Position numbers and translations under genes: made by a program. A stretch of DNA of 47,694 bases from a virus. Below the pieces are notes generated by a model. The model searched no databases. It was not told the DNA's origin and was given only the letters and a program-made list of their open reading frames with translations. The stretch's first letter is position 1. The number at the start of each line of letters is the position of its first letter. Positions 18,050 through 40,341 of the stretch are shown in pieces. The stretch lies in the IMG/VR virus record IMGVR_UViG_3300022538_000189. One strand, written 5' to 3'.

Positions 18050-18322
18050 TTATTTTAGTTGGCTTAATTGTTCTCTGGCTTGATTCCCAACCTGAATTGC
18101 CAAGCCCATTTCGTTTATTAAAGAGTCTATAATGTGGATTAGTGCCCTTGCGTTCACAGCGTCTTTATCTTTTTTAAGATTCTCTATTGCGATATTATAT
18201 TTGTTTTGTAGAAAATCTTCTATAAGTCTCCAACCTGGTGAACTAAACAAAGTTACTAACTTGTCACGATTATATCCTTCTTTTAATAAAGCATTCTCAA
18301 CTTTTGTTACCTCTTGTTCCAT
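18050..18322 (-). CDS. Hypothetical small protein between portal and scaffold.
   Basis: I chose the ATG at 18322, which is TAATG-coupled to the portal stop and has SD GAGGAAGTG. 90 aa. Confidence 0.45.
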   Translation of the reverse strand: MEQEVTKVENALLKEGYNRDKLVTLFSSPGWRLIEDFLQNKYNIAIENLKKDKDAVNARALIHIIDSLINEMGLAIQVGNQAREQLSQLK

Positions 18323-20229
18323 TATACACTTCCTCTCCATTGAGCTCCGCCCATACCACCAGTAAGAGGGGAACTGTCGGTATTAACAGGAGTGGGTTGT
18401 CCTGATTGGACGGAATTTATTCTCTGTTTTTTCTGATATTCATATATCTTTGGAATTAATTTTTCTATGTTCTTGAAGTTTAAAGCTACCCCACAACGCT
18501 TTATTACTTCGCCTACGTCGCCAATCGGTTCCATGACAGGTTGTCCGTCTCCACCGATTATAGGTTGTCCACTTGCTGGGTCAACCATTGGTTCTTTAGC
18601 TGCAATGATTAATTCAAAGAATTTTAATAAATTCTGCATTTCTGTTTGTTTCTCTTGAAAGACACTCACTCCTCTTGCAATAAAATCAGGGTCTCCATAT
18701 AGAGTTAAATCTTCTTTTGTAATATTCTTGCTCTTTGACATCTGCTCCCATTCTGCGGCTTTCTCTTTACCTAATATTCTATAAGCGGAAGTCTTTGAAA
18801 AGAATTTTGTATCTAATCTATAAAATATATTCAGCATCTTAGTATAAGCAGGTTCTAATATATGTCGTACAACGTCCTTTATTGGCTCTGCGGCATTTGC
18901 CTGCTGTATCTGCGTGCCACCAAGAGTTTCGTGCATTTCCTTTTTTGTTGGAGTCGGGGATATCGCAGGAACAGCTTGACTCAATTTTTGTATTCTCTGG
19001 TCTAAGAAATTAATATTAAGCATAATTGGTTGCAATGCAGAAGCCGCAGCAGTTGTATCTATAAACGATATAGCTTTTCTTACATCATCTACCATCGCAT
19101 TTGCTATAAATACTTTGCCTGGATATGAAACCAATGTGCCTGATAAAGATGATAAAAAGGTAGGATTAATTATCAGCATTGGGTTACAAATGATGCTTAC
19201 AGCATCATTGAATCTATTATGAAGATTAGTAAGTTCCCTTGCTAATGCTTCAATATCTTCACCAGTCCCGCATCCTACTTGTTCATTAACCATCTTATCT
19301 TTAGAACTACAGAAGAATATATTGCATTTGTATTCATCCTTAATAGCTCTTATAACAACTTCTCTATTAGCTATTGTTACAATTGCTTTAACATATTCAT
19401 CTTCATAGGGGTCTACGTCAGATGTATCAGTTAATTCGCCTTCTAATAATGAAGCAGGAACTTCTCCGTGATATTCTAATAACTCTATTCGTGGATCTAA
19501 CTGGTCAGGTGCTTCAAGAGATAAATCAATACCTGCAAATATATTTTCTTTCTCAGGTTGACTTGTTCCTCTTAATTTATAAATATCGTGAAAAAATCCA
19601 CCTTTCTCTTGTTTCTTTAAAAAGGATAATTCAATATCTCTATGCTCTATAAACTTCCAACTATTTAATCCTCTATGAGCAGGGTCAGGATAAAAAGCAG
19701 TTATATCCAATACTTCAAAATCTGGTCCATCGAAGATAAGTTTTCCATCTTCATCATATTCCATCTTCCAGGGGCAATAGCCAACCGTGAATCCATACAT
19801 TTCAAACTGTTTACAATAAGCATCCCATTGTCCATAGAAACCATCTAAGTCTCTTGCGACCTGCCTTTGTTGGTATGCAAGAACACTTTTAACTAATGGT
19901 GCACCTTGTTCATCTTCTTCTTCGCCAGGGAGTATATCAAATGATTCCAAGTTATTGCTAAATAAAATATTCATATATAAAGGAACTTTAACTCTTACAA
20001 CTTCTTTAAATACAGGTATAACAATATTAGATTGCCATGCTTCTTTAGTTGTAATTCTTGTTCCTCTATAATTTACATATTGCCTTTTCCAGTTCTCCAT
20101 ATTTTCTCTCATACCATCTTTAGCCCACCCAAGTCTTTGTTTTAACCATTCTAACAAAGCACGGTGTTTAGTTGGTACTAAATCTTCGAGACTGGATATG
20201 TCCTCTAAAAAACTTGCTTTTTCAACCAT
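18322..20229 (-). CDS. Portal protein.
   Basis: 635 aa from the ATG at 20229 (SD AGAAGGAGAA). It directly follows terL, and its size and position are typical of portal proteins. Confidence 0.75.
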   Translation of the reverse strand: MVEKASFLEDISSLEDLVPTKHRALLEWLKQRLGWAKDGMRENMENWKRQYVNYRGTRITTKEAWQSNIVIPVFKEVVRVKVPLYMNILFSNNLESFDILPGEEEDEQGAPLVKSVLAYQQRQVARDLDGFYGQWDAYCKQFEMYGFTVGYCPWKMEYDEDGKLIFDGPDFEVLDITAFYPDPAHRGLNSWKFIEHRDIELSFLKKQEKGGFFHDIYKLRGTSQPEKENIFAGIDLSLEAPDQLDPRIELLEYHGEVPASLLEGELTDTSDVDPYEDEYVKAIVTIANREVVIRAIKDEYKCNIFFCSSKDKMVNEQVGCGTGEDIEALARELTNLHNRFNDAVSIICNPMLIINPTFLSSLSGTLVSYPGKVFIANAMVDDVRKAISFIDTTAAASALQPIMLNINFLDQRIQKLSQAVPAISPTPTKKEMHETLGGTQIQQANAAEPIKDVVRHILEPAYTKMLNIFYRLDTKFFSKTSAYRILGKEKAAEWEQMSKSKNITKEDLTLYGDPDFIARGVSVFQEKQTEMQNLLKFFELIIAAKEPMVDPASGQPIIGGDGQPVMEPIGDVGEVIKRCGVALNFKNIEKLIPKIYEYQKKQRINSVQSGQPTPVNTDSSPLTGGMGGAQWRGSV

Positions 20230-20239
20230 ATTTCTCCTT

Positions 20240-21640
20240 CTAATAACCCACAAATGGGTCGCTATGTTCTATTACATATTTCAATAAATCTTTTTGTTGT
20301 TTGATATAATCGCTTGTTCTCATTACAATATCCGATTTTTCAGCTAATCCTAACATTCTCATAGCATCTGCTCCGTGAGTATGTTTATCTTTACGTGGTG
20401 TCTCTGACCATATATTGAAAGTTTTATTATAGGATTTTGAATAATTTTCAAGATGCTCAATTAATAATGCAGCTTTAACTCTATCAAAATAACATTTAGG
20501 TATGAAATTTCTTGTGGCTTCTATTCCATCTTGTAAATCAGTTCTCGGAACTAATTGGAAGATGATACCATGTTCCTTTGCTACTGCTATTTGAGGTTTG
20601 CCATCATTAGAAAAGACACGTGCTTTTAAGTCATGTGGTCCATAATGGTTTCCATAAACATAACTAAGTTCTGCTCGGTATTGTTGAAGTATTCCTGCGT
20701 AATGTCCGATACCTTCACCACTATTCTCATAGTAGTTTATAATATGATATTCGCCTGGAAGTTTTTGAAAAAAAATAATTGCGGTAGCATCATCAATTCC
20801 TACATCCCATGCAGTATGAACTGGTAATGCTGGGTCATGCGGTATATTCTTAATTCTTTGTGTTTGCCATGCCTGATTCATCAACCTTGCGTAATAGGCT
20901 CCAGCAGTTCCATAGTCGAAACTACAATAATATTCTTGCTGAATAAAAGCTTCATCTACATTTCTTCTACGCAATGATTCTATTTGAGCAAGTGTGATAA
21001 CAGGACTTCCATCTTCTCTAATGGTATGGTCAATAGTCCTTAGCATGGTAAACCAATCATCATCTTCTTGTGCAAATTTCCATAAATTCCAACCATGATT
21101 TCTACCATTAGGTGTATAAAGGAATTTAGCCCATCCGTCATTCTCTAATAAAATAGGTTCGATAACTTCCCATGCTCGTGGATCTTGATGAGCATACTCT
21201 GAAAATACAGCACCAACACAATTTGTACCACGTGCAGCATCAAAATCATCAGTTCCTATAAATTGGATAATTGAACCATTGATAAGTTCAATTGACATTT
21301 CTGTACTATTAATTTTTGGAAAACCTTTATTGCCAATAGCAATAAGTTCATCTGGGATATAACTAAGAAATCTTCTGCCTGGAATTGGTGGATGATGACG
21401 TGGATCTCCCCCTGTCATTCCTTTCCAGATAACTTTTCTTGCTTGTGTAGCAGTAGGAAAGAAGTAATTATAAGTTCCTATTCTTTCCGTAGCAGCTTTT
21501 GTAACATCATTAACAGCAGTTAAATCTTTTCCTGCCCTTCGATGCCATATATATATCTCACGTAAATACCCCATACCACGTGCTTGTAACATTGGAATTT
21601 GATAATTTCGTGGAGCAAATTCGTGTGGAAGATGTATCAT
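20240..21640 (-). CDS. terL: Terminase large subunit.
   Basis: I chose the ATG at 21640 (SD AAGAGGA). Walker-A-like WHRRAGKDLT sits in the N-terminal ATPase half. The C-terminal nuclease half contains acidic motifs (AWDVGIDDATAI…). The 31-codon upstream extension in the ORF track lacks an SD. Confidence 0.8.
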   Translation of the reverse strand: MIHLPHEFAPRNYQIPMLQARGMGYLREIYIWHRRAGKDLTAVNDVTKAATERIGTYNYFFPTATQARKVIWKGMTGGDPRHHPPIPGRRFLSYIPDELIAIGNKGFPKINSTEMSIELINGSIIQFIGTDDFDAARGTNCVGAVFSEYAHQDPRAWEVIEPILLENDGWAKFLYTPNGRNHGWNLWKFAQEDDDWFTMLRTIDHTIREDGSPVITLAQIESLRRRNVDEAFIQQEYYCSFDYGTAGAYYARLMNQAWQTQRIKNIPHDPALPVHTAWDVGIDDATAIIFFQKLPGEYHIINYYENSGEGIGHYAGILQQYRAELSYVYGNHYGPHDLKARVFSNDGKPQIAVAKEHGIIFQLVPRTDLQDGIEATRNFIPKCYFDRVKAALLIEHLENYSKSYNKTFNIWSETPRKDKHTHGADAMRMLGLAEKSDIVMRTSDYIKQQKDLLKYVIEHSDPFVGY

Positions 21641-21902
21641 GTAGCGTCCTCTTTTGCAGATTATGATATTGATAATGTAATCCGTGTCCTGTGAGGACAC
21701 ACTTTGCAGTTTAAATATAATTTGGCAAACCAAGTAGGAGTTTAACCCACGCCAAAACGTTTGGAGCGTCTTATGCTGTCGTTACACCATTGGCTCACGT
21801 GTTGGATGCACAGGATTTACTTGCAGACCTATTATCTGCTCACCTATACATCCATTAGTGCAGTTTTTTTGGTTATCAGTAGAGACTGCTAACTCTAACA
21901 TT

Positions 21903-21976
21903 TGGGGTGATATGGCAGACTCGAACCGCCTTCGCCTCGTTCACAGCGAGGGGCTTTACCCATAAGCTAATACCAC
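21903..21976 (-). tRNA. tRNA-His (GUG), CCA encoded.
   Basis: Hand-folded cloverleaf. Acceptor GTGGTAT/ATATCAC, D stem GCTT/AAGC, anticodon stem-loop CCTCG-CTGTGAA-CGAGG, T arm GGCGG-TTCGAGT-CTGCC, discriminator C. Confidence 0.75.
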
Positions 21977-21979
21977 AAT

Positions 21980-22055
21980 TGGTGGACCAGAAAGGGACTC
22001 GAACCCTTAATTCCTGCGTGCAAAACAGGTGTTTTCCCAGTTAAACTATCAGCCC
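21980..22055 (-). tRNA. tRNA-Ala (UGC), CCA encoded.
   Basis: Anticodon arm CCTGT-TTTGCAC-GCAGG, D stem GTTT/AAAC, T arm AAGGG-TTCGAGT-CCCTT. The acceptor starts GGG with a G3:U70 pair. There is one extra nucleotide between the T stem and the acceptor 3' strand. Confidence 0.65.
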
Positions 22056-22063
22056 ATAATGCC

Positions 22064-22111
22064 TGGTAGCGGAGCCAACAGACTCACCAGCTTTTGCTGT
22101 ATTTCACTACC
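22064..22111 (-). ncRNA. 48-nt tRNA-slot element: an acceptor-like 7-bp helix with no cloverleaf.
   Basis: GGTAGTG…CGCTACC plus an unpaired A. The interior holds only small hairpins (CAGC-AAAA-GCTG). It occupies a slot between tRNA-Ala and tRNA-Asp with the same 7-8 nt spacing as the real tRNAs. Confidence 0.35.
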
Positions 22112-22118
22112 ATTACAG

Positions 22119-22189
22119 CCGACGTAATCAGAAATGAACTGATATCTTCCTGCGTGACAGGCAGGTGCTTTGCATTAAGCTATACGCCG
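22119..22189 (-). tRNA. tRNA-Asp (GUC), CCA not encoded.
   Basis: Acceptor CGGCGTA/TACGTCG, D stem GCTT/AAGC, anticodon arm CCTGC-CTGTCAC-GCAGG, T arm ATCAG-TTCATTT-CTGAT, discriminator G. Confidence 0.7.
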
Positions 22190-22200
22190 ATATTGATTTA

Positions 22201-22274
22201 CGGAGAAAGTAGGATTCGAACCACCGACTCCTTGCTTCCAAAGCAAGTACGCTGACCAGACTGCGTTACTTCCC
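22201..22274 (-). tRNA. tRNA-Pro (UGG)-like, with a weakened T stem and acceptor stem.
   Basis: The anticodon arm CTTGC-TTTGGAA-GCAAG and D arm ACGC/GCGT are good and the T loop is TTCGAAT. The T stem (GGTGG/CCTAC) and the acceptor each carry 2 mismatches in my hand fold. Confidence 0.5.
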
Positions 22275-22280
22275 AATAAA

Positions 22281-22354
22281 TGGAGCAGATAAAGAGAGTC
22301 GAACTCTTATCTATCGGGTGGAAACCGCTAATACTACCGTTGTACTATACCCGC
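22281..22354 (-). tRNA. tRNA-Gly (UCC), CCA encoded.
   Basis: Acceptor GCGGGTA/TATCTGC (two G:U pairs), anticodon loop TTTCCAC, T arm AAGAG-TTCGACT-CTCTT. The 5' 21 nt overlap the 3' end of the CDS at 22334-22621. Confidence 0.65.
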
Positions 22355-22621
22355 TCTTGCTTTATCTTTTCTTTCTATAATTATATTATTCGCCTCTGCA
22401 TTTGCAATTACTAATGATTGCCAATGTGCCACAAAACTTACAGCATTCTGGACTACCTGTGGAGTTACTCGTTCCTGTAATAAAATGAACTCATCTTCTG
22501 TCATTCGTCTAACTGAGTTAATAAAATCATTTACTACCGATACTGCTGTAACTTCCCCTGCTGTTATAGGAATTGCTAAAAGACTCAAAATAACAACTGC
22601 TATTATTAATATTTTTTTCAT
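22334..22621 (-). CDS. Small secreted or membrane-anchored protein encoded inside the tRNA array.
   Basis: I chose the ATG at 22621 (SD GGAGA; ATGA overlap with the upstream stop). The N-terminus MKKILIIAVVILSLLAIPITAG is signal-peptide-like. 95 aa. Confidence 0.6.
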   Translation of the reverse strand: MKKILIIAVVILSLLAIPITAGEVTAVSVVNDFINSVRRMTEDEFILLQERVTPQVVQNAVSFVAHWQSLVIANAEANNIIIERKDKARAGIVQR

Positions 22622-22806
22622 TTTAAAATCTCCTCTAAACTTTTTGCAGCAATTACAACTTCTTCGGCTTTTTCCATACAAGCATCACATAATAACTCGT
22701 GATGAAATGCTCCTGGCACAATATGCCCATTATAATACTCAATTCTACTTAAATATTTAAGTGGTAAAAGCCTTTTACATTGCAAACAATGACCAAACCT
22801 TTTCAT
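22618..22806 (-). CDS. Small zinc-ribbon protein encoded inside the tRNA array.
   Basis: I chose the ATG at 22806 (SD AAGGAA). 62 aa with CLQC…CDAC. Confidence 0.5.
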   Translation of the reverse strand: MKRFGHCLQCKRLLPLKYLSRIEYYNGHIVPGAFHHELLCDACMEKAEEVVIAAKSLEEILK

Positions 22807-22822
22807 TCTTATTCCTTTTAAA

Positions 22823-22897
22823 TGGAGCCCATAGACCAGAATCGAACTGTCATCTAAGGTATACAACACCCTTATAATACCATTATACTATACAGGC
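22823..22897 (-). tRNA. tRNA-Thr (UGU), CCA encoded.
   Basis: Acceptor GCCTGTA/TATGGGC, anticodon arm AGGGT-GTTGTAT-ACCTT, T loop TTCGATT. The T stem has a 1-nt bulge in my hand fold. Confidence 0.6.
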
Positions 22898-22903
22898 TTA
22901 AAA

Positions 22904-22977
22904 TGGCTATAGAGCACAGAGTTGAACTGTGGTCTCAAGGGTCAAATCCTTGCATCCTACCGTTAAACGACTCTACA
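22904..22977 (-). tRNA. tRNA-Gln (UUG), CCA encoded.
   Basis: U1:A72 and G73 as in bacterial tRNA-Gln. Anticodon arm CAAGG-ATTTGAC-CCTTG, with a perfect T arm CACAG-TTCAACT-CTGTG. Confidence 0.7.
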
Positions 22978-22982
22978 ATAAC

Positions 22983-23048
22983 TTGGCGGAGTACGACTTA
23001 TAAGTATATACCGTCACGTACCACACTATCATGGGAATTTACCGCCAA
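22983..23048 (-). ncRNA. 66-nt tRNA-slot element: a perfect 7-bp terminal helix, no T loop, and no foldable cloverleaf.
   Basis: TTGGCGG…CCGCCAA. Internal palindromes ACTTATAAGT and GTACG…CGTAC. It sits 2-5 nt from the flanking tRNA-Asn and tRNA-Gln. Confidence 0.35.
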
Positions 23049-23050
23049 TA

Positions 23051-23126
23051 TGGCTGCGAAGGCAGGCATCGAACCTGCATATCCCTGATTAACAGTCAGG
23101 TTCATTACCAATTATAATACTTCGCA
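23051..23126 (-). tRNA. tRNA-Asn (GUU), CCA encoded.
   Basis: Acceptor TGCGAAG/CTTCGCA, anticodon arm CCTGA-CTGTTAA-TCAGG, T arm GCAGG-TTCGATG-CCTGC, discriminator G. Confidence 0.8.
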
Positions 23127-23133
23127 ATAAATT

Positions 23134-23222
23134 TAGGGGTGCCATCAGCAGAGGTTAACATGTATGGCGTTCCGCTTGGTGGGTACTTACGATTACCTCA
23201 AACGACTCGGACACTACCCCTA
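23134..23222 (-). ncRNA. 89-nt tRNA-slot element with a Ser/Leu-like D-loop sequence but no T arm; tRNA-like or degenerate class-II tRNA.
   Basis: Terminal helix TAGGGGT…ACCCCTA. CCGAGTCGTTTGAGG resembles a class-II D arm. The best anticodon-like hairpin is GGTA-ATCGTAAG-TACC with an 8-nt loop. No TTCGA-type T loop is present. Confidence 0.3.
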
Positions 23223-23225
23223 AAA

Positions 23226-23299
23226 TGGTACCGATACCTTGAGTTGAACAAAGATCTTCCGCTCATCAAGCAGACGTTCTACCATTGAACTACATCGGT
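23226..23299 (-). tRNA. tRNA-Ile (GAU), CCA encoded.
   Basis: Acceptor ACCGATG/TATCGGT, D stem GTTC/GAAC, anticodon arm TCTGC-TTGATGA-GCGGA, T arm CTTTG-TTCAACT-CAAGG. Confidence 0.75.
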
Positions 23300-23303
23300 G
23301 TAA

Positions 23304-23392
23304 TGGTGGAGACGGTGAGACTCGAACTCACGTGTAGCGTTCACAATCTTTATGATGGCATTGCTACTTAGCTAACGACTCCTGTCGTCCCC
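23304..23392 (-). tRNA. Class-II-sized (89 nt with CCA) tRNA-like gene with an aberrant anticodon arm; identity unresolved.
   Basis: Acceptor GGGGACG/CGTCTCC and T arm GTGAG-TTCGAGT-CTCAC are perfect, and there is a variable-arm-like hairpin GTG-AACGCTA-CAC. The anticodon region CAAT-GCCATCATAAAG-ATTG cannot form a 5-bp stem with a 7-nt loop. Confidence 0.4.
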
Positions 23393-23396
23393 AAAA

Positions 23397-23470
23397 TGGT
23401 AGCGGTGTGGAGAATTGAACTCCAACGGTACTGCTTATGAGACAGACCAGCTAAGCCACAGCTCACCGCA
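23397..23470 (-). tRNA. tRNA-Met or Ile2 (CAU), CCA encoded.
   Basis: Anticodon loop CTCATAA, T arm TGGAG-TTCAATT-CTCCA. The acceptor GCGGTG/CACCGC has a U1-U72 mismatch in my hand fold. Confidence 0.6.
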
Positions 23471-23746: not shown

Positions 23747-23938
23747 TTAATATCTTATAATGTTCTTTTTCCATTCATCTAAAATCTTTTTAGGAACTTT
23801 TGTCTGTTCGTTTAACCATTTATCAAATCGCCAAACAATCATCTGCCAATTTCTATTTTCATTAAGTAAATTTGACCCTACTACTTCGGCTCTTCCGCTT
23901 TTGGTCATACCTTCACTACTTTTAAATGCTTTACTCAC
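23747..23938 (-). CDS. Hypothetical small protein.
   Basis: 63 aa. The GTG start is in a GTGA overlap with the upstream stop; SD GAGGTG. Confidence 0.45.
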   Translation of the reverse strand: MSKAFKSSEGMTKSGRAEVVGSNLLNENRNWQMIVWRFDKWLNEQTKVPKKILDEWKKNIIRY

Positions 23939-24498
23939 GATATATACACCTCTTTTGGTATTTTATATTCATCTGCTGTCCCACCCATATCTATTGGGTC
24001 AAATTCAACAAACAATGAATCAATTTCGTCTCTACATTTTTCTTGTTCTAATTTCTTTTTGAGTTCTAATTCCATTGCCTCAAAAGCTTCCACATTTCCC
24101 ATCGCATCATTTACTGGATTATGGTCATGTTTAGTTTTTCTAAACTTCTTCCAGTCTGTACTTCTATGAAAATTACCTTTTAACCCTGCGTAATAATCAC
24201 CGATTCTTCGTGCACTCCATCCAAAAGGATTCATCCTAAAACAATGATGAAACCAGTAATTGATCCATTGCCAATCAAATGCAGGATTATCACTTACAAA
24301 AACAGGTCTTGTTGGGCAATTATCCCTTAAAAAGACTAAGAAATTCCACATTGTAAGCATTTTACCATAAGGAGTTTTCATCCTCATATCCCCATAAAAT
24401 GTCTTTTTTGTCTTATAAATAACTGCTCCAAATTCTGTCAGTTTTCCCTTACCTATGCAAGGTCCAGATGCCTCACAATCAACGAATACAAGAGTCAT
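23935..24498 (-). CDS. DEDDh-type 3'-5' exonuclease (DnaQ/RNase T-like).
   Basis: 187 aa with ExoI FVDCEASG, ExoII DNPAFDWQW, and ExoIII HDHNPVNDAMGN (H-x4-D). Confidence 0.7.
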   Translation of the reverse strand: MTLVFVDCEASGPCIGKGKLTEFGAVIYKTKKTFYGDMRMKTPYGKMLTMWNFLVFLRDNCPTRPVFVSDNPAFDWQWINYWFHHCFRMNPFGWSARRIGDYYAGLKGNFHRSTDWKKFRKTKHDHNPVNDAMGNVEAFEAMELELKKKLEQEKCRDEIDSLFVEFDPIDMGGTADEYKIPKEVYIS

Positions 24499-30017: not shown

Positions 30018-31606
30018 ACACAGAAAAAAAAGTTAATAAATTAACCTGTGAAGGTTGCAAGAAGAAAATTGATGAAAGATACGCCCTTGAAAGCGGAGAT
30101 TGTTATTATTGCCTGGATTGTTGGCTGGGTAAGTACGAAAACCACCTACTATTTCACTATGATTATAAACCGAAGCCAATATTTTGTAAAATGTCATTCG
30201 AGAAGAACCCTCTTTTCTTAGGAATTGAGCTTGAAGTAGAAGCAAACGACGACACCGATGAATATTATGATGATGAAGACGACGACAGCAACAGCGACGG
30301 TTATTTACAGGATTATGCTTATGGTATTATGAAATCGTACCCCTGTTATATCAAATACGATGGAAGCCTCAATAATCATGGAATGGAGATTGTAACCCAC
30401 CCGCAATCGGTTAAATATCATAAGAGGATTTTTAAGTGGAAGCAACTGCTTGAAACATTAAAAGCTGACGGATTCACCTCGTACAAAAATAATAGATGCG
30501 GACTACATATCCACATATCAAAAAAATGGTTTAAGCCAGAAGATTTTTTGAAATTTAACATATTTTTTGATAAAAATTTCTCTGTAATGAAACGCTTTTC
30601 AAAAAGGACAAAGACAAACTATTGTAATAAAGTAAATGCAGAAGAAACAAGAAGAATATCCAAAGATAAAAAGAAAGCACAACTTGAGGAGTGGTACGAT
30701 CATTATAGATGTGTATATTTCGGAAATCCTACCACGATAGAACTCCGTATATTCAGAGGAACTCTTGATATAGACCGCTTTAATGCCACCCTTGATATAA
30801 CGGAAGCCCTTGCCTATTTTGTTAAAAGTTATTCACTTGTATTTTTTATCAAGGCAACTAAAAAACAATTATGGTTTTCATTCTTAGCTTTTATGAAACA
30901 ATCAAAGAAATACCATAAGTTATTAAAATACTTAGAAAAAAAGACCCTTCTATATTGCCCTCTTAACAATATACCAAGACAAGGAACAATACTTGAAAGT
31001 AATGTAGAGAGAAAAGACCTTCTAACTTTAATGGGAAATTCCAATATTAAAGAATTTTTGAAAGGGAAAGAATTAAATAAATTGGAGTATTATTTTGATG
31101 ATTTTGAAGATTATATAATTAACTATCAAAATGATGTCTATTTCCTAAGAGATAATTGCTATCTACCGATTAATTTTGAGAAAATAGTAATGTATAACAA
31201 ACATTACAACGCACAAAAGCGAAAAATGATTTTAGATTTTTTTATTGAGTACGGTTTTACTTTTGAGATTCAAAGGGAAAATATAAATCTAAATATCAGA
31301 AATAGAAAAGAATTCGCCACAGCTTTAGGAGTAGATATAGACAAGATTAGGAAAGAAAGGGAAAAGAAAAACCAACTTGACGAAAAGCTAATGAAAAAAG
31401 CCAACAAGAGAGCAGGGAGAACCAGGAATAATAATATTTACGGTACACTAGAATTTACAAGAACAGGTAGGACTAATAGTGTGATAAGCATAGACACCAA
31501 GAATCGAGATTGGGAAACAGAGAAAATTCACCGCCTGATAACAAAAGCCCTTGCAAAAAGAGAGAATAAACATTATATCTTTATAATCAAAAATAAAAAT
31601 AATTAA
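30014..31606 (+). CDS. Amidoligase (Amidoligase_2 family, glutamine-synthetase-like fold) with an N-terminal zinc ribbon.
   Basis: 530 aa with a TTG start (SD GGAGA 8 nt upstream). CEGC…CYYCLDC at the N-terminus, then LGIELEVEA, an acidic insert, YIKYDGSLNNHGMEIVTHP, CGLHIHISK and TIELRIFRGT. Confidence 0.65.
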   Translation: MNTEKKVNKLTCEGCKKKIDERYALESGDCYYCLDCWLGKYENHLLFHYDYKPKPIFCKMSFEKNPLFLGIELEVEANDDTDEYYDDEDDDSNSDGYLQDYAYGIMKSYPCYIKYDGSLNNHGMEIVTHPQSVKYHKRIFKWKQLLETLKADGFTSYKNNRCGLHIHISKKWFKPEDFLKFNIFFDKNFSVMKRFSKRTKTNYCNKVNAEETRRISKDKKKAQLEEWYDHYRCVYFGNPTTIELRIFRGTLDIDRFNATLDITEALAYFVKSYSLVFFIKATKKQLWFSFLAFMKQSKKYHKLLKYLEKKTLLYCPLNNIPRQGTILESNVERKDLLTLMGNSNIKEFLKGKELNKLEYYFDDFEDYIINYQNDVYFLRDNCYLPINFEKIVMYNKHYNAQKRKMILDFFIEYGFTFEIQRENINLNIRNRKEFATALGVDIDKIRKEREKKNQLDEKLMKKANKRAGRTRNNNIYGTLEFTRTGRTNSVISIDTKNRDWETEKIHRLITKALAKRENKHYIFIIKNKNN

Positions 31607-31622
31607 AAGGAGAAAAAAATAT

Positions 31623-32435
31623 ATGTGTATAATTGTTTTTAAACCCAAAGGAGTAAAACCACCAAAGGAAAAAATTTTAAGGAACTGCTTTTCAAACAAT
31701 GCTGACGGTATGGGAATAGCAATTCAAAGGGATAATAAAATAATAATTAATAAATTTATGAAAATAGAGCCTTTTATAAATCATATCAGACATAGCGTAA
31801 GAAAAGAAGATAATGTTATTTATCACTTTAGGATTGCTACGCATGGAAGGGTTAGCATTGAAAACGCCCACCCTTTTATTATCACAAAAGACTGTAAAGA
31901 AATGAACGAAAGCGAGAGTATAACAGAAAAGAATATCTTAGCCCATAACGGAATAATAATTTCTTTAGTTGACGATCAAAAAACAAACGATAGTAAGGTT
32001 TTAGCCCACATTTTAGCCGACAGGGAGATTAACAGAAACCTTTTTAAATCGAAAGGAATAAGAAAGTTAATTAAAACTATCTTAGCAACCGACAAGCTAA
32101 TAATAATGAATAAATCAGGTAACTTTTTTATGATAGGAGATTTTGAAAGGGAAAAAGGAATATACTATTCAAACCTAACCTATAAATATAATACTGAATA
32201 CTTACAAAGATACTATGATGATTATTATTATATCCCCTGGAATAGCAAAGACAAAAAATCTAACCTGACAATCGAAGAAGCAAAAAGGCAGAAATTATTA
32301 TCCGAAACCGATAAAATTAGGGTTAGTGGTGCTTGTTGTGCATATTGTAACACCAGGAAAGAAGTATATTATTTCTGGGATATCGAAGAAAATCTTTGTG
32401 AAAACTGTTTCCATTCAATCTATGAAATAGAATAA
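31623..32435 (+). CDS. Class-II (Ntn, Cys2) glutamine amidotransferase with a C-terminal zinc ribbon.
   Basis: 270 aa. N-terminal MCIIVF with Cys directly after the Met. Also ADGMGIA, HFRIATHG, ENAHPF, LAHNGII and NDS. C-terminal CCAYC…CENC. Confidence 0.65.
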   Translation: MCIIVFKPKGVKPPKEKILRNCFSNNADGMGIAIQRDNKIIINKFMKIEPFINHIRHSVRKEDNVIYHFRIATHGRVSIENAHPFIITKDCKEMNESESITEKNILAHNGIIISLVDDQKTNDSKVLAHILADREINRNLFKSKGIRKLIKTILATDKLIIMNKSGNFFMIGDFEREKGIYYSNLTYKYNTEYLQRYYDDYYYIPWNSKDKKSNLTIEEAKRQKLLSETDKIRVSGACCAYCNTRKEVYYFWDIEENLCENCFHSIYEIE

Positions 32436-36249: not shown

Positions 36250-36392
36250 CCTATCACCCCCTTATAAGCTATGTATATTAATTTATACAAATCAATGAAG
36301 CTATCTATTACTAATCCGACCATAACAACCTTAAATGTAAACCAGAACAGACCTGTACATTGAACCCACGTTAAATCATATAAAAATGTCAT
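36237..36392 (-). CDS. 51-aa membrane micropeptide candidate.
   Basis: ATG at 36392 in an ATGA overlap with the rtcB stop. Sequence MTFLYDLTWVQCTGLFWFTFKVVMVGLVIDSFIDLYKLIYIAYKGVIGWVK. Confidence 0.4.
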   Translation of the reverse strand: MTFLYDLTWVQCTGLFWFTFKVVMVGLVIDSFIDLYKLIYIAYKGVIGWVK

Positions 36393-37564
36393 CCTTTTAT
36401 CACCCCTATTGGTATTAATCGTTCTTTTATTTCACAAAGATCTTTCTGTAATTCCATTACTTTATCTATGTTCTTGTAAGCAGAAGGAGCTTCATCTAAC
36501 TGACTGACTGTTCTCACGCTATGGATTACTCCCTTTAATTCGAGCTTATGCTGTTCTTCTGCTAAGTCTAATTCTGCTTTAGCTTTAGACCTTGACATTT
36601 TTCTCCCTGCACCATGAGAACAGGAAGTAAAACTTTCAGGATTACCAAGCCCTTTAGTTATGTAACTAAAACTCCCCTGACTGCCAGGAATTATCCCTAT
36701 CTCTCCAAGTCTCGCACTTATAGCACCCTTTCTATGCACCCATACATTCTTACCAAAATGGTTTTCCTGTCTTACGTAGTTATGTATGACATCTATATCT
36801 TCCTCTATAAATGCACTAAGCAAGTGCTTATCCAAGATATTTTTAATCTTATCCATCATAACCCTTCTATTGGCTTCTGCAAACTCCACACAATAATTCA
36901 TTTCTTTTAAGTAATCTTGCCCCTCTTTACTATCAACTGGTAAGAAAGCTAAGTCATAACTCGGAGCCACCTGCGTATGCCATTTAGCATTTAAGTCTTT
37001 GGCTAATTGATTATAATGTGACGCAACTTTATACCCCAAGTTCCTGCTTCCAGAGTGTAGCATTATCCACAAGCTATTATCCTCACCCACCTGAAACTCA
37101 ATGAAATGATTGCCACCACCAAGAGTTCCTAATTGTTGTGCGGCACTTTGCAATTCATCAGGTATGACATCCTTTGTCAGTAAGTTCCAATGCAATGGCG
37201 GTAATGCGTCAGAATTTGCTTCTTCATTATGTTTGAAACCGACAGGAATTACCTCTCTGATTTCACTCATTAACTCCTTAACTTTTTCTTTCTTTAATTG
37301 CACTACATTTAATTTGATTGCCCTCATTCCGCAACCTATGTCAACGCCTACTGCATTAGGTATGATATAAGCATGAGTAGCTAACACCGTACCAATAGGC
37401 ATACCATAGCCCTGATGACAGTCAGGAAGTAGCACTATTTGTCTATAAGAAAAAAACAACTTAGATAAGTTCTCTGCTTGTAACATTGCTCCGTTCTCTA
37501 TATAATCTAACCACATCTTAATTGGTATTCTATTATTTCTCTTATCAAATTTTACTCTTTCCAT
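36389..37564 (-). CDS. rtcB: RtcB RNA 3'-phosphate/2',3'-cyclic-phosphate ligase.
   Basis: 391 aa from the ATG at 37564 (TAATG coupling). Motifs VDIGCGM, GGGNHFIE, HSGSRNLG, PGSQGSFSY and SCSHGAGR. Confidence 0.85.
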   Translation of the reverse strand: MERVKFDKRNNRIPIKMWLDYIENGAMLQAENLSKLFFSYRQIVLLPDCHQGYGMPIGTVLATHAYIIPNAVGVDIGCGMRAIKLNVVQLKKEKVKELMSEIREVIPVGFKHNEEANSDALPPLHWNLLTKDVIPDELQSAAQQLGTLGGGNHFIEFQVGEDNSLWIMLHSGSRNLGYKVASHYNQLAKDLNAKWHTQVAPSYDLAFLPVDSKEGQDYLKEMNYCVEFAEANRRVMMDKIKNILDKHLLSAFIEEDIDVIHNYVRQENHFGKNVWVHRKGAISARLGEIGIIPGSQGSFSYITKGLGNPESFTSCSHGAGRKMSRSKAKAELDLAEEQHKLELKGVIHSVRTVSQLDEAPSAYKNIDKVMELQKDLCEIKERLIPIGVIKG

Positions 37565-38172
37565 TAGCAACCACCCTCTTTCTTTATTATTTTAATTAAT
37601 TGCATTTCTATTCTTTCAAGTTCTTCCATTGAATGCTTTGCAATTCCACCATTCTTTAGTGCTCTATCCTGTATCATAGTATACCATGCTTTGCCTCTAA
37701 TGTCAATCATCTTTTGTAAAAACCAAAAAGGATTTTTATGAGCACTCCATATTGAAAAGACGTGATGTTTAACACACAACGCTACGCCATTATCAACGTC
37801 CCACCTGACATTGAAATTCGATCTTCCAATAAGATGATGAGCATTTAGTCCGTGCCCTTTTCCTAATCCATTTACATTCTGACATCTTTTATCTGTCACA
37901 ATCTCACATCTATTTTGAGCAATTACCTTTACTGCTTGAGCCCACAAAACATCTAATCGTTTCTTTAATATCCATCTTGCAGTATGCTTCTTCTTAGGAC
38001 GACCACCTATTCGTCTAACTTTTGGACACCACGAAGGAGCAGTATCCTCAATCATATTAGAAAGAGGAATTTCGTTTTGTTTCCTCTGAGTAAGAGAGCA
38101 TTGAACACCCAGCCCTTTTACTCCAAGTATATAGTGTGAACACTTCTTACATTTAACGTCCTTTTTCTTCAT
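37564..38172 (-). CDS. NinG/Rap-like HNH-type endonuclease with an N-terminal zinc ribbon.
   Basis: 202 aa from the ATG at 38172 (SD AAGGAAGTGAT). CKKC…, then LNAHHLIGRSNFNVRWDVDNGVALCVKHH. Confidence 0.5.
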   Translation of the reverse strand: MKKKDVKCKKCSHYILGVKGLGVQCSLTQRKQNEIPLSNMIEDTAPSWCPKVRRIGGRPKKKHTARWILKKRLDVLWAQAVKVIAQNRCEIVTDKRCQNVNGLGKGHGLNAHHLIGRSNFNVRWDVDNGVALCVKHHVFSIWSAHKNPFWFLQKMIDIRGKAWYTMIQDRALKNGGIAKHSMEELERIEMQLIKIIKKEGGC

Positions 38173-38509
38173 TCTTATCACTTCCTTTCAATAGCTCGTG
38201 AGCGTAACCCATTGTATTAAACATAACACCCATCAATGCTTTCATTATTCCATCTTCTGTTTTAATACCCCTGTGTTCTTTCCATACTGCCATAAAATGA
38301 CGGAATAAAGATTTCATATAAGTTTCATAAGGTATTCCTTTTTGCCAGTTATCTGATTTTCTCACACCAAGTGCTGTATGTCTATTTTTTTCCATATATT
38401 TAGCAAACTCTTCAAGCACTAAAGGAGAAAAAAATCCTTCATAATCCAATTTACCTTCTACTATGTCTCTCGTTGCTCCTGTTTCAAATTCACGCATTTT
38501 TTTAACCAT
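38153..38509 (-). CDS. DUF5664-like protein (dATP/dGTP diphosphohydrolase N-terminal-like domain).
   Basis: 118 aa. REFETGATRD…GKLDYEGFFSP…NWQKGIPYETYMKSLFRHF matches my recollection of that family's pattern: F.tGA.Rd, then NW.kG, then s..RH. Confidence 0.45.
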   Translation of the reverse strand: MVKKMREFETGATRDIVEGKLDYEGFFSPLVLEEFAKYMEKNRHTALGVRKSDNWQKGIPYETYMKSLFRHFMAVWKEHRGIKTEDGIMKALMGVMFNTMGYAHELLKGSDKNEEKGR

Positions 38510-38876
38510 TCTTGAACCTCTTTTTCAAAATTTTATAAGTCTTTAACCAACCAGGAAACCCCTGCAAATTCAAATCATCTATATAGGCATCTGCATAGAT
38601 CTTTTTTGTATTCCACCAATAAACTTGCTTTACATTCTCATTTATGCATTCAAAATATTTTAGAATATCCCATTTTTCCATGAGTTTTATAGGTTCTTCT
38701 AACCACGCTTTACTTCTACAAGTCCAGAGTATCATTCTATACCCTTCATTATATAACTTTTTCAATACCTTTTTGCAATTTGGCATTAATTTATTCTCTG
38801 TATCAATAGCTCTTTTGCTCTCTCTTATTGTCCCATCAAAATCTATCGCCAATATTGGCTTTCCTAAATAAGCCAT
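38502..38876 (-). CDS. Small HAD-superfamily (DxDxT) phosphatase.
   Basis: 124 aa. LAIDFDGTI at the N-terminus and YIDD near the C-terminus. SD AAGGGGGTGATATAA. Confidence 0.55.
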   Translation of the reverse strand: MAYLGKPILAIDFDGTIRESKRAIDTENKLMPNCKKVLKKLYNEGYRMILWTCRSKAWLEEPIKLMEKWDILKYFECINENVKQVYWWNTKKIYADAYIDDLNLQGFPGWLKTYKILKKRFKNG

Positions 38877-39377
38877 TTATATCACCCCCTTATCAAAATG
38901 TTCTCTTGCTTTTCTATTTAATATTTCTATTATCTGTTCATCTGTGAAGTAACATTGGCTACGTGGATTACGTCCTTTGGCATCCCAACGTGCCAACTGT
39001 ATTAAATCAGGGAGCCAACAGTGGTTTGCTAACTCCAAACATTTCTTTAATCCCTGCATTTCTCCTTTTAAATATGTCCAGATTCTCATGTGATGTTTTA
39101 CTAACCATACAGTTTTACAACTCGAAAATCCTTCTATGAGCTTGACACTATCCTTTGTGTGGTGATTACTGTAAGTCACTTTCCCCACATCATGCAAGAG
39201 TACCGCCAAAATCAAATCCAAGTCCATTGTTTCTCTTATCGCCCACTTGAATACTTGATAAGTATGTTTCAATGCGTCTCCTTCAGGGTGATATTCTACT
39301 TGCTGTTCAATACCTTTCAAAGCATGTAATACATCAAGAATTGGTTTCATATTCTTTTTTGTAAAATAATCTTCCAT
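38877..39377 (-). CDS. HD-domain phosphohydrolase (resembles the HD domain of CCA-adding enzymes).
   Basis: 166 aa from the ATG at 39377 (SD ATGGGGGTG). Motifs YHPEGDALKHT and LLHDVGK. Confidence 0.6.
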   Translation of the reverse strand: MEDYFTKKNMKPILDVLHALKGIEQQVEYHPEGDALKHTYQVFKWAIRETMDLDLILAVLLHDVGKVTYSNHHTKDSVKLIEGFSSCKTVWLVKHHMRIWTYLKGEMQGLKKCLELANHCWLPDLIQLARWDAKGRNPRSQCYFTDEQIIEILNRKAREHFDKGVI

Positions 39378-39378
39378 A

Positions 39379-40341
39379 TTAACACCCCCATAACATCTTT
39401 TCAACCTCAAACATTATAAATTTTTCCCAATACTTTCTATCTACTTTATCAGGATAGTCGCTTGCGACTGCTAAGTCTTTTACTTCTCCGATAAGAGTTT
39501 CCAGTAAAGGAGCAACTTCGCTCTTGTAATCTATTTTTCCTGCTTTGATATCTTTCAAGTATTCTGCTTGTGCCAATGGAAATTTTATTTCTCCATCTTT
39601 ATAGAGTTCTATCAACTGCATTGAGGCTCTTATAGCATGAGATACTGCCTTCCAATCTATTCCTTCATTCTTTTCTGCTAATCTTGCTCTTGCACCATAA
39701 GCATTATAAAACGTTACCATTATATCAAAAAGATATCGCAAGGTAGCAGTCTCCTGTATTTTTTTACCACATACTTGATAAATCCTAAGTCTGTCCTTTC
39801 CTATCTCGTATTTATGGATATGTTCTCTTTGTGGTAGTTTATCCCAAACCTGCTTTAATCTTGTCTTGTTCATATCATTACCCTTCTGTGTATCAAAATC
39901 ATTAATGAAATCCATAACTTTTCCAGCAGAGGCTAACCTACTCCCCTTAATTCCATATTTAGAAGCTTGTCTCATTGCATATCCTACAAAAGCATGCATG
40001 TCTTTTGTTATGAAAAGATGTTTATTGAGACATATTGCTTTCCAAGTATCTGATGTTTCTAAAATCATATCATCAGGAGCGTGAAGCATATCAATAGCAA
40101 CGGTTTGCCCCTGACAAGCCAATTCCAAAAAGTAATGTAACGAATAGACTTCTGTATCTGTATCTCCCGAAGTATTTTTGCCTACTCCAACCTTTGTTTT
40201 TTCTGAATAACATTTTGGTATTCTCCCTAAAAATATTTGTTCTTTAGTGGGCATAAATATACCCTTATAATCAGTATCAGAATCTTTCGTATCTGTTCCG
40301 TATAAATGACTTCCGAATTTCATTTTTACTATTGTATTCAT
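39379..40341 (-). CDS. Pol-beta-superfamily nucleotidyltransferase of the RlaP (RNA-repair-associated) type.
   Basis: 320 aa. N-terminal KFGSHLYGTDTKDSDTDYKGIFMP. TAATG-coupled to dnaB. Confidence 0.55.
   Translation of the reverse strand: MNTIVKMKFGSHLYGTDTKDSDTDYKGIFMPTKEQIFLGRIPKCYSEKTKVGVGKNTSGDTDTEVYSLHYFLELACQGQTVAIDMLHAPDDMILETSDTWKAICLNKHLFITKDMHAFVGYAMRQASKYGIKGSRLASAGKVMDFINDFDTQKGNDMNKTRLKQVWDKLPQREHIHKYEIGKDRLRIYQVCGKKIQETATLRYLFDIMVTFYNAYGARARLAEKNEGIDWKAVSHAIRASMQLIELYKDGEIKFPLAQAEYLKDIKAGKIDYKSEVAPLLETLIGEVKDLAVASDYPDKVDRKYWEKFIMFEVEKMLWGC

Follow-up and report, generated by a model that had tools for sequence, protein, structure and literature searches.

Three helix-closed, tRNA-sized elements between the tRNA genes of a phage-like contig

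The contig and its tRNA array

The window analysed here is the whole of IMG/VR virus record IMGVR_UViG_3300022538_000189, 47,694 nucleotides (nt) in length, and our subject is three elements, E1, E2 and E3, which occupy slots in its transfer RNA (tRNA) array without being tRNAs themselves. The contig is phage-like. It contains a portal gene and a large-terminase gene, and also codes for an SU10-type adaptor, a DnaB helicase, an exonuclease and a lysozyme. The array lies directly upstream of the terminase gene (positions and strands of all features are listed in Table 1). Megablast of 25 kb found no near GenBank phage, and the distant blastn matches were individual tRNAs only. An identical array is present in the independent Logan assembly of run SRR7716471, so the array is not an artefact of one assembler.

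Read from 5' to 3', the array consists of a Met-like(CAT) gene, a short element resembling transfer-messenger RNA (the mini-tmRNA), Ile, E3, Asn, E2, Gln, Thr, two small open reading frames (ORFs), Gly, Pro, Asp, E1, Ala, His, a 106-nt spacer and Trp, after which the terminase gene follows. Nine tRNAs are called by ARAGORN with default parameters. The Thr(UGU) gene, the Met(CAU)-like gene and the tmRNA-like element were added by relaxed ARAGORN, Rfam and a lineage-specific model, giving 11 tRNA genes and the mini-tmRNA (12 tRNA-like genes). CCA is encoded in 10 of these 12 and is absent from Asp and Pro. No excess of promoters or terminators was found inside the array or in E1-E3, where the only match is one weak promoter-like sequence in E2; this is consistent with a single precursor.

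Closing helices of the three slots

E1 is located between tRNA-Asp and tRNA-Ala (60.8 and 51.1 bits with the Rfam tRNA model), E2 between tRNA-Asn and tRNA-Gln (58.5 and 48 bits), and E3 between tRNA-Ile (60.7 bits) and tRNA-Asn. The gaps between the elements and their neighbours are 2-9 nt, versus 4-10 nt in the six tight tRNA-tRNA gaps of the array. An earlier note, made from the letters of the window alone, had proposed three such elements, each closed by a helix of 7 base pairs (bp) and spaced like a tRNA. Their coordinates, 7-bp helices and spacing were all confirmed on the minus strand, and two of the helices are longer than was proposed, reaching 8 bp in E1 (through U(-1)/A48) and 9 bp in E3. 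The three non-tRNA occupants named in that note are real, while the mini-tmRNA was missing from its list.

The chance of finding such helices was estimated from 5000 dinucleotide shuffles of the whole spacers, in which we counted an equal or better helix within 10-12 nt of both ends. A terminal helix as good appeared in 94 of 5000 shuffles for E1 (p = 0.019), 304 for E2 (p = 0.061) and 12 for E3 (p = 0.0024). The Fisher combined p is 2.6e-4 for the three closing helices, and 7e-4 when the fourth, unclosed long spacer is added. Three of the four long spacers of the array are closed at their extreme ends. The fourth, 106 nt long, has no end-closing helix (z = -3.1 for the whole spacer).

In all three elements, the 3' strand of the closing helix directly adjoins a second helix of 5 bp or more, and nothing comparable is found on the 5' side. 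The p values of this second helix are 0.10 for E1, 0.06 for E2 and 0.16 for E3 (Fisher combined p = 0.03). The arrangement suggests the geometry of the acceptor/T-stem minihelix of a tRNA, with support that is not strong. No 3' CCA is encoded in E1-E3, and their closing helices are followed by A-GGC, G-UUA and A-AUU, respectively.

Folds of the three elements

E1 is a compact three-way junction with a minimum free energy (MFE) of -20.3 kcal/mol, and this structure makes up 86% of the ensemble in RNAfold. Two hairpins follow the 5' strand of the closing helix: CAGC-AAAA-GCUG, after a linker of 5 nt, and, 2 nt later, GAGUC-UGUU-GGCUC. None of 200 shuffles was equally stable (z = -4.0). The complement on the plus strand folds at only -10.8 kcal/mol, an asymmetry of 9.5 kcal/mol, and this preference for the tRNA strand is due to the two G-U pairs of E1. 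Among the three elements, E1 is the best candidate for an RNA with its own function. As a hammerhead or other ribozyme it was rejected: by inspection the junction strands do not fit, and no Rfam family matched.

E3 has the topology of E1 on a larger scale. After the closing helix, a linker of 10 nt leads to an interrupted arm of 11 bp, whose 8-nt loop is AUCGUAAG; 3 nt further on is the GCCAU/AUGGC stem with its 18-nt loop. Its stability is ordinary (MFE -26.6 kcal/mol, z = -1.3), and there is no strand bias. The earlier note had correctly placed the 8-nt loop in the best hairpin of E3. It had also seen a class-II-like D-loop string in this element, a claim that fails: the 18-mer of this string gave 11 chance matches only in 185,579 representative genomes. 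These 11 matches are ordinary coding-type DNA in look, and no predicted tRNA overlaps any of them.

E2 is the weakest case of the three. About 19 nt on the 5' side of its interior are unstructured, followed by a long imperfect hairpin with the outer stem GGUAC/GUACU (5 bp including one G-U pair). The p of 0.06 given above for its abutting helix scored an 8-bp G-U-rich pairing, AGUGUGGU/GUCGUACU, and not this 5-bp stem. The tRNA-like constrained fold has an energy of -15.8 kcal/mol versus the MFE of -17.1, a cost of 1.3 kcal/mol. E2 folds at -12.6 kcal/mol on the plus strand compared with -17.1 on the tRNA strand, a preference given by G-U pairs. The fold is no better than those of shuffles (z = -1.0).

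Comparison with tRNAs and other RNA families

In order to compare E1-E3 with tRNAs, ARAGORN was run in default mode, with -ps80, with -ps60 and introns, and in the metazoan-mitochondrial mode (-mt), which detects armless tRNAs; none of these runs reported anything for the three elements. In Rfam, no tRNA-clan match to E1-E3 was found at E<=10, either in the 2.4-kb array region or with E1 or E3 alone (the gathering threshold of RF00005 is 29 bits). E3 searched alone matched no family at E<=10, and E1 alone gave four chance-level partial matches to unrelated non-tRNA families, all below 13 bits. We also trained a lineage tRNA covariance model on 29 class-I tRNAs, taken from this phage and four relatives, and ran it with filters off. 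With scores of 26.7-74.8 bits, it finds each of the 12 tRNA-like genes in the array, leaves E1 and E2 unscored, and gives a 2.1-bit fragment in E3. Even the lowest-scoring tRNA-like gene is thus cleanly separated from the elements, which indicates that E1-E3 are not merely low-scoring tRNAs, and their non-tRNA status, asserted earlier from hand folds, is upheld by all three methods.

A TTCGA-type T loop and an anticodon arm of 5 bp and 7 nt are absent, as had been noted, and the D arm is absent as well. E1 has the loops AAAA and UGUU, and E3 has the 8-nt loop and an 18-nt loop; that of E2 is UACU or ill-defined. The tRNA trait that is present is the 7-bp acceptor-like stem with a T-stem-like helix stacked on its 3' strand.

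Other RNA families were considered too. The covariance model of the mini-tmRNA finds nothing in E1 and E2 and a 4.7-bit fragment in E3. By global alignment, E3 resembles the mini-tmRNA family at p ~0.02, with GAGTCGTT, TAAGTA and GAACGC in common and in the same order. E3 as a decayed copy of the mini-tmRNA is unproven: the nhmmer profile has no match in E3, and the 4.7 bits lie below the scores of ordinary tRNAs. No YrlA RNA was found in E1-E3, the lone weak match (22.7 bits, gathering threshold 69) covering tRNA-Ile and the mini-tmRNA. Miniature inverted-repeat transposable elements were rejected because the three inverted repeats are unrelated and, by inspection, no target-site duplication is visible.

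Relatives and turnover of the array

Relatives were gathered by their terminase protein from IMG/VR, JGI metagenomes and the ENA/Logan/NCBI gene index. Eight distinct arrays are readable, with a terminase identity of 55-85% and a different gene content in each, and none of them contains a counterpart of E1-E3. BLAST of E1-E3 (7-nt words) against 15 loci gave chance words of 10-11 nt only; arrays fetched after this search were checked by a spacer survey and by eye. No helix-closed slot was found in the long-spacer survey of nine arrays, in which one slot of a relative (L017 57-124) was masked by a spurious ARAGORN call. Moreover, exact-word scans of IMG/VR with 18-mers from E3 and E1 gave no match, and neither did a 20-mer from E1 in the 185,579 representative genomes. 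The sole match of a 20-mer from the anticodon arm of tRNA-Asn is an unrelated jumbo phage, and the one homologue of a 95-aa ORF embedded in the array sits in a non-tRNA context. According to the earlier note, a lack of conservation in relatives would refute its proposal. Such a lack was found, but in a weak form: the relatives are without the slots altogether, and this is absence of the slot, not lost conservation within it.

The differing arrays and their degenerate genes hint at turnover and decay of tRNA slots within the lineage. For example, L018 3350-3424 is a relative of tRNA-Gln with intact anticodon and T arms and a broken acceptor stem, and L018 3988-4060 resembles a tRNA gene, with a normal T arm and a low score. 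Low scores were likewise obtained for several "Thr" and "Met" genes. The masked slot of L017 (68 nt, between two tRNAs) is closed by GCAGAC/GUCUGC and holds a displaced T arm, GCAGG-UUCGAGU-CCUG. It is a second, unrelated case of tRNA-like debris inside a closing helix.

A possible role in processing

We put forward, as a tentative reading in which our confidence falls a little short of even, that RNase P and RNase Z excise E1-E3 as tRNA-shaped modules with no decoding function, and that these are probably vestigial slots kept, in a passive role, as processing punctuation. The helices, the spacing, the strand bias of E1 and E2, the non-tRNA status, the missing CCA and the absence from relatives are observed, while co-transcription with the tRNAs, cleavage by RNase P/Z, the punctuation role and any ex-tRNA origin are what we infer. 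E1-E3 would be transcribed together with the tRNAs in one minus-strand precursor. The ends of each module would pair as a 7-bp acceptor-like helix stacked on a 5-bp helix, producing a 12-bp mimic of the minihelix. The closing helix and the abutting helix would then be the counterparts of the pair of tRNA helices recognised by RNase P, RNase Z and the CCA-adding enzyme. Because the acceptor/T-stem stack is the part recognised by RNase P (5' cut) and by RNase Z or a 3' exonuclease, tRNA-like excision is expected. Decoding is impossible for E1-E3, since the 5-bp/7-nt anticodon arm, the T loop and an encoded CCA are all missing.

The benefit of excision may lie in the upstream tRNAs. Encoded CCA is an anti-determinant for RNase Z, and both Ile (before E3) and Asn (before E2) carry it. 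Maturation of such tRNAs relies on an endonuclease that cuts a short way downstream, after which exonucleases trim the remainder. If RNase P cut where E3 or E2 begins, the upstream tRNA would keep a trailer of 2-3 nt, versus 73-99 nt with an uncleavable spacer. With such a benefit, selection would keep the closing helix and the stack, and the interior would be free to drift, shrink or be replaced. The shuffle-like interiors of E2 and E3 (z = -1.0 and -1.3) are expected if only the outer helices are selected.

Several points weigh against this proposal. The stability of the whole fold of E1 hints at selection on the entire structure and not on the ends alone, and so stable an interior fits the prediction of drifting interiors less well. 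The trailer argument is also weaker for E1, as its upstream neighbour, Asp, has no encoded CCA. For the three elements together, tRNA ancestry is not detectable: global alignment to 115 lineage tRNAs was at the level of shuffles and the lineage model gave at most 2.1 bits, so no sequence trace was found of the degenerate tRNAs suggested in the earlier note. The evidence from the abutting helix is modest (p = 0.06-0.16 per element), and transcription and cleavage of E1-E3 are predictions. In addition, the compact arrays of relatives lack such slots, and punctuation would be dispensable after clean deletion of a slot.

The idea of processing punctuation has a precedent in organelles. In the t-elements of plant mitochondria and in the mitochondrial tRNA punctuation model, non-decoding tRNA-like folds direct RNase P/Z cuts that mature neighbouring RNAs. 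They resemble E1-E3 in having an acceptor stem with a stacked arm, and directing cuts, their sole known job, is the role proposed here. They differ in being organellar and in flanking mRNAs, and cleavage of E1-E3 is only predicted. We know of no dedicated punctuation module inside a bacterial or phage tRNA array.

Phage T4 long ago provided examples of non-tRNA RNAs in a tRNA operon, and there are precedents as well for tRNA-like processing signals and for phage RNAs matured by RNase P. The analogy with T4 drawn in the earlier note is factually right: rnaC and rnaD (species 1 and 2 RNAs) are annotated inside the T4 tRNA operon. Like E1-E3, they are small non-tRNA genes on the tRNA strand, a few nt from their neighbours, and rnaC ends in an acceptor-like helix. 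However, they are 139 and 119 nt long and lie at the end of the operon, whereas E1-E3 lie between tRNAs. Furthermore, rnaC keeps a canonical T arm (CCGGG UUCGAAU CCCGG), which E1-E3 lack, and weakly matches tRNA-Sec in Rfam (17.5 bits, E = 0.76). Local alignments of E1-E3 to rnaC and rnaD are no better than those of shuffles (p = 0.16-0.82). To our knowledge, the function of rnaC and rnaD is unassigned after decades.

What sets the present case apart is three unrelated modules, without anticodon or T loop, that are interleaved between tRNAs. Since they come from a single genome and have no homologues in the relatives and collections searched, we regard them as a well-defined target for experiments, short of a demonstrated new class of RNA. 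If they are excised as punctuation only, the organellar tRNA-like processing signals would have a bacterial or phage counterpart in them, and they would imply that selection on RNA processing can keep the shell of a dead tRNA slot. This would be useful for annotating phage tRNA arrays, in which such slots now go unlabelled.

Alternative explanations

E1-E3 might instead be active tRNA mimics. After excision they would act in trans, either as decoys or sponges of host factors recognising the acceptor/T-stem half of a tRNA, or as partners of the RNA-repair enzymes of the phage. Candidate targets are tRNA-targeting defence nucleases, processing or modification enzymes and the CCA-adding enzyme. 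We regard such a decoy or regulator role as unlikely, but the fold of E1 is exceptionally well determined and the rest of the genome provides a setting for it. The phage carries RtcB, RlaP, an HD protein and a HAD-like phosphatase in one cluster (36389-40341), which suggests that the host attacks tRNAs. RlaP adds one or two nt to damaged RNA 3' ends and is required to restore aminoacylation of heavily damaged tRNA (PMC12776372). Both RtcB and RlaP are linked to the repair of nuclease-damaged tRNAs (PMC12776372; PMC7824862), and are regarded as phage counter-measures to tRNA-cleaving host effectors (PMC7824862). The repair genes, the 11 tRNAs and the mini-tmRNA point to strong pressure on tRNA supply, which makes a decoy role of E1-E3 conceivable. 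Competitive tRNA-like RNAs also have a phage precedent, since the tmRNA of mycobacteriophage DS6A, which has no coding sequence (CDS), is reported to inhibit host tmRNA (PMC11915505).

The comparison with the mini-tmRNA counts against active mimics. CDS-less mini-tmRNAs (in DS6A, in jakobid mitochondria and at 23304-23392 of the window) are anticodon-less tRNA-like RNAs, and the copy in the window even sits in a tRNA slot of the same array. However, this copy has a canonical T arm, a G3:U70 pair, encoded CCA and lineage conservation, none of which is found in E1-E3. The adjoining mini-tmRNA is kept across the lineage, whereas E1-E3 are unconserved in relatives and collections. The hairpin loops are unlike anticodon loops, the interiors of E2 and E3 fold no better than shuffles, and no target can be named. 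A TROVE/Ro60 partner gene is missing among the 40 window proteins scanned against Pfam. We consider it distinctly unlikely that E1-E3 represent an unrecognised type of anticodon-less tRNA mimic, a third layer of tRNA-centred counter-defence beside the replacement tRNAs and the mini-tmRNA. If they were active mimics, they would be a new tool in the tRNA conflict between phage and host, to which this phage is unusually committed.

We likewise give little credence to E1-E3 being neutral filler, that is, spacer DNA from insertions or decayed genes whose helices have no function and which is degraded after the tRNAs are excised. Such filler would account for their confinement to one genome, for the closing helix of E2 taken alone (p = 0.06), for the shuffle-like folds of E2 and E3, and for the other long spacer (21797-21902), which has no closing helix. 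It does not account for the finding that, of four long spacers, three are closed at the extreme ends (combined p = 7e-4 with the fourth included), for the stability and strand asymmetry of E1 (z = -4.0; 9.5 kcal/mol), or for the recurrence of a helix abutting the 3' strand in all three elements.

It is improbable that E1-E3 are RNase P-processed antisense or cis-regulatory RNAs like C4 of P1/P7 or CI of P4, with loops pairing with phage mRNAs. C4 and CI are said, in 1995 work by Hartmann et al. and by Forti et al., to be matured by RNase P through an acceptor-like closing helix, the feature that E1-E3 share. They too are small phage RNAs in which this helix mimics an acceptor and RNase P makes the 5' end. 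However, C4 and CI are conserved and have defined antisense targets, while for E1-E3 neither homologues nor a perfect complement above chance was found: the longest perfect complements in the 47.7-kb contig are 11, 12 and 9 nt for E1, E2 and E3, the level of shuffles, and short bipartite pairings are still conceivable.

Highly improbable, finally, are unconventional decoding tRNAs (armless, or with an 8-nt anticodon loop) and E3 as a diverged duplicate of the mini-tmRNA: armless and D-armless mitochondrial tRNAs do share the size (42-66 nt), a closing helix with one or two arms and, for the D-armless ones, the topology of E1 and E3, but they keep an anticodon loop of 7 nt and are detected by ARAGORN -mt, whereas E1-E3 have no such loop, no CCA and no hit in that mode, and the equal length of E3 and the mini-tmRNA (89 nt) and their common words stand against a profile without a match to E3, a covariance score of 4.7 bits and the lack of a G3:U70 pair in E3.

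Neighbouring elements

Table 1. Features of the window and of related loci (positions refer to the window unless a relative is named)
Feature	Position	Strand	Description
E1	22064-22111	minus	47-nt module plus discriminator-like A; RNAfold, shuffle test
E1 closing helix, 5' strand	22105-22111	minus	GGUAGUG; pairs with 22065-22071
E1 closing helix, 3' strand	22065-22071	minus	CGCUACC; 7 bp including one U-G
E1 T-stem-like hairpin	22072-22085	minus	GAGUC UGUU GGCUC; abuts closing helix, 12 bp stacked in all
E2	22983-23048	minus	66-nt module, 7-bp closing helix UUGGCGG/CCGCCAA
E2 T-stem-like helix, 5' strand	23018-23022	minus	GGUAC; pairs with 22990-22994
E2 T-stem-like helix, 3' strand	22990-22994	minus	GUACU; directly 5' of closing-helix 3' strand
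E3	23134-23222	minus	89-nt module, 7-bp closing helix UAGGGGU/ACCCCUA, 9 bp with flanks
E3 long arm	23172-23205	minus	7 bp + 4 bp, loop AUCGUAAG; predicted fold
E3 T-stem-like hairpin	23141-23168	minus	GCCAU, 18-nt loop, AUGGC; stacked on closing helix
tRNA array	21723-23470	minus	
Portal gene	18322-20253	minus	
Large-terminase gene	20240-21640	minus	
106-nt spacer	21797-21902	minus	no end-closing helix
Thr(UGU) gene	22824-22897	minus	32.3 bits on Rfam tRNA
Met(CAU)-like gene	23397-23470	minus	27.5 bits on Rfam tRNA
Mini-tmRNA	23304-23392	minus	89 nt, tRNA-like domain only, GGGGACG.../...CGUCUCCACCA
Mini-tmRNA homologue	L002 2710-2798		
Mini-tmRNA homologue	L003 3826-3908		
Mini-tmRNA homologue	L013 6561-6647		
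Mini-tmRNA homologue	L014 3677-3765		
Mini-tmRNA homologue	L016 3160-3234		
Mini-tmRNA homologue	L018 2454-2546		
Mini-tmRNA homologue	L020 692-787		
Leader motif	21855-21901	minus	before tRNA-Trp/terminase
Leader motif	L002 2994-3040		
Leader motif	L003 5294-5340		same as L012 579-625
Leader motif	L013 6885-6933		
Leader motif	L020 1213-1261		
AAACUGCAAA box and hairpin	~21685-21720	minus	also in L002, L003, L012, L013, L020
Spacer hairpin	21797-21853	minus	GGAUGUAUAGGUG...CCUGUGCAUCC
RtcB ligase	36389-37564	minus	E = 6e-109
dATP/dGTP diphosphohydrolase-like ORF	38153-38509	minus	
HAD-like phosphatase	38502-38876	minus	
HD-domain protein	38877-39377	minus	resembles HD part of tRNA nucleotidyltransferase
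RlaP-family nucleotidyltransferase	39379-40341	minus	Pfam 2.8e-15; phrog_388 3.8e-93

The mini-tmRNA is arguably of more interest than E1-E3. It scores 44.7 bits on the Rfam tmRNA model (gathering threshold 47), and three relatives reach 46.9-52.4 bits. It has a G3:U70 pair, a canonical T arm and encoded CCA, and is miscalled as tRNA-Leu(UAA) by relaxed ARAGORN. The element is conserved with covariation in eight relatives, where its P2-like helix appears as TAGC/GCTA, CAGC/GCTG, CAGAT/ATCTG, CCAG/CTGG and TAACC/GGTTA. Members of the family are 75-96 nt long and contain no conserved tag reading frame. In every relative the mini-tmRNA lies downstream of a Met(CAU)-like gene, directly so except in L014, where one ORF lies between. 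From these features, it looks like a new, conserved phage lineage of the DS6A type of CDS-less tmRNA.

The Met(CAU)-like and Thr(UGU) genes of the array are atypical, and ARAGORN at default settings missed both. In the Met-like gene, the D arm is reduced and, by inspection, 1:72 is a U-U mismatch. The counterpart of this gene in L003 (3750-3821) is still more degenerate.

The leader that precedes tRNA-Trp and the terminase gene also contains a conserved motif. Its form is GUUAGAG-UU-[S2 5']-CUCUAC-(A-rich, ~12 nt)-[S2 3'], where S2 is stem 2. Stem 1 (UAGAG/CUCUA) is invariant, and stem 2, formed by the stem-1 loop and the segment past the A-rich tract, is fully compensated (GCAG/CUGC, GUGGC/GCCAC, CCGC/GCGG, GCGG/CCGU and CAGG/CCUG). 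This pattern would correspond to an H-type pseudoknot with an A-rich third strand, and could be a riboswitch-like or transcription-control element; the motif has no match in Rfam. Between it and tRNA-Trp, the spacer contains a strong hairpin with a 12-bp outer stem and an inner GCAGAU/GUCUGC stem, which is contig-specific and absent from relatives. Closer to the terminase gene, the window and all close relatives share a conserved AAACUGCAAA box, with a perfect hairpin (GUGUCC-NNNN-GGACAC) after it, at 20-40 nt before the start codon of the terminase. The site could serve in late-gene control or in processing.

Two further observations were made outside the array. The ORF at 23935-24498 (minus strand), three genes upstream of the array and conserved in L002 and L014, weakly matches an Rv2179c-like 3'-5' exoribonuclease (E = 7e-4, below the Pfam cut-off). 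At 30191-32435 on the plus strand, an amidoligase_2 gene (E = 8.5e-10) adjoins a class-II glutamine amidotransferase-like gene (E = 2.4e-5), a pairing that is typical of phage peptide- or nucleotide-modification cassettes.

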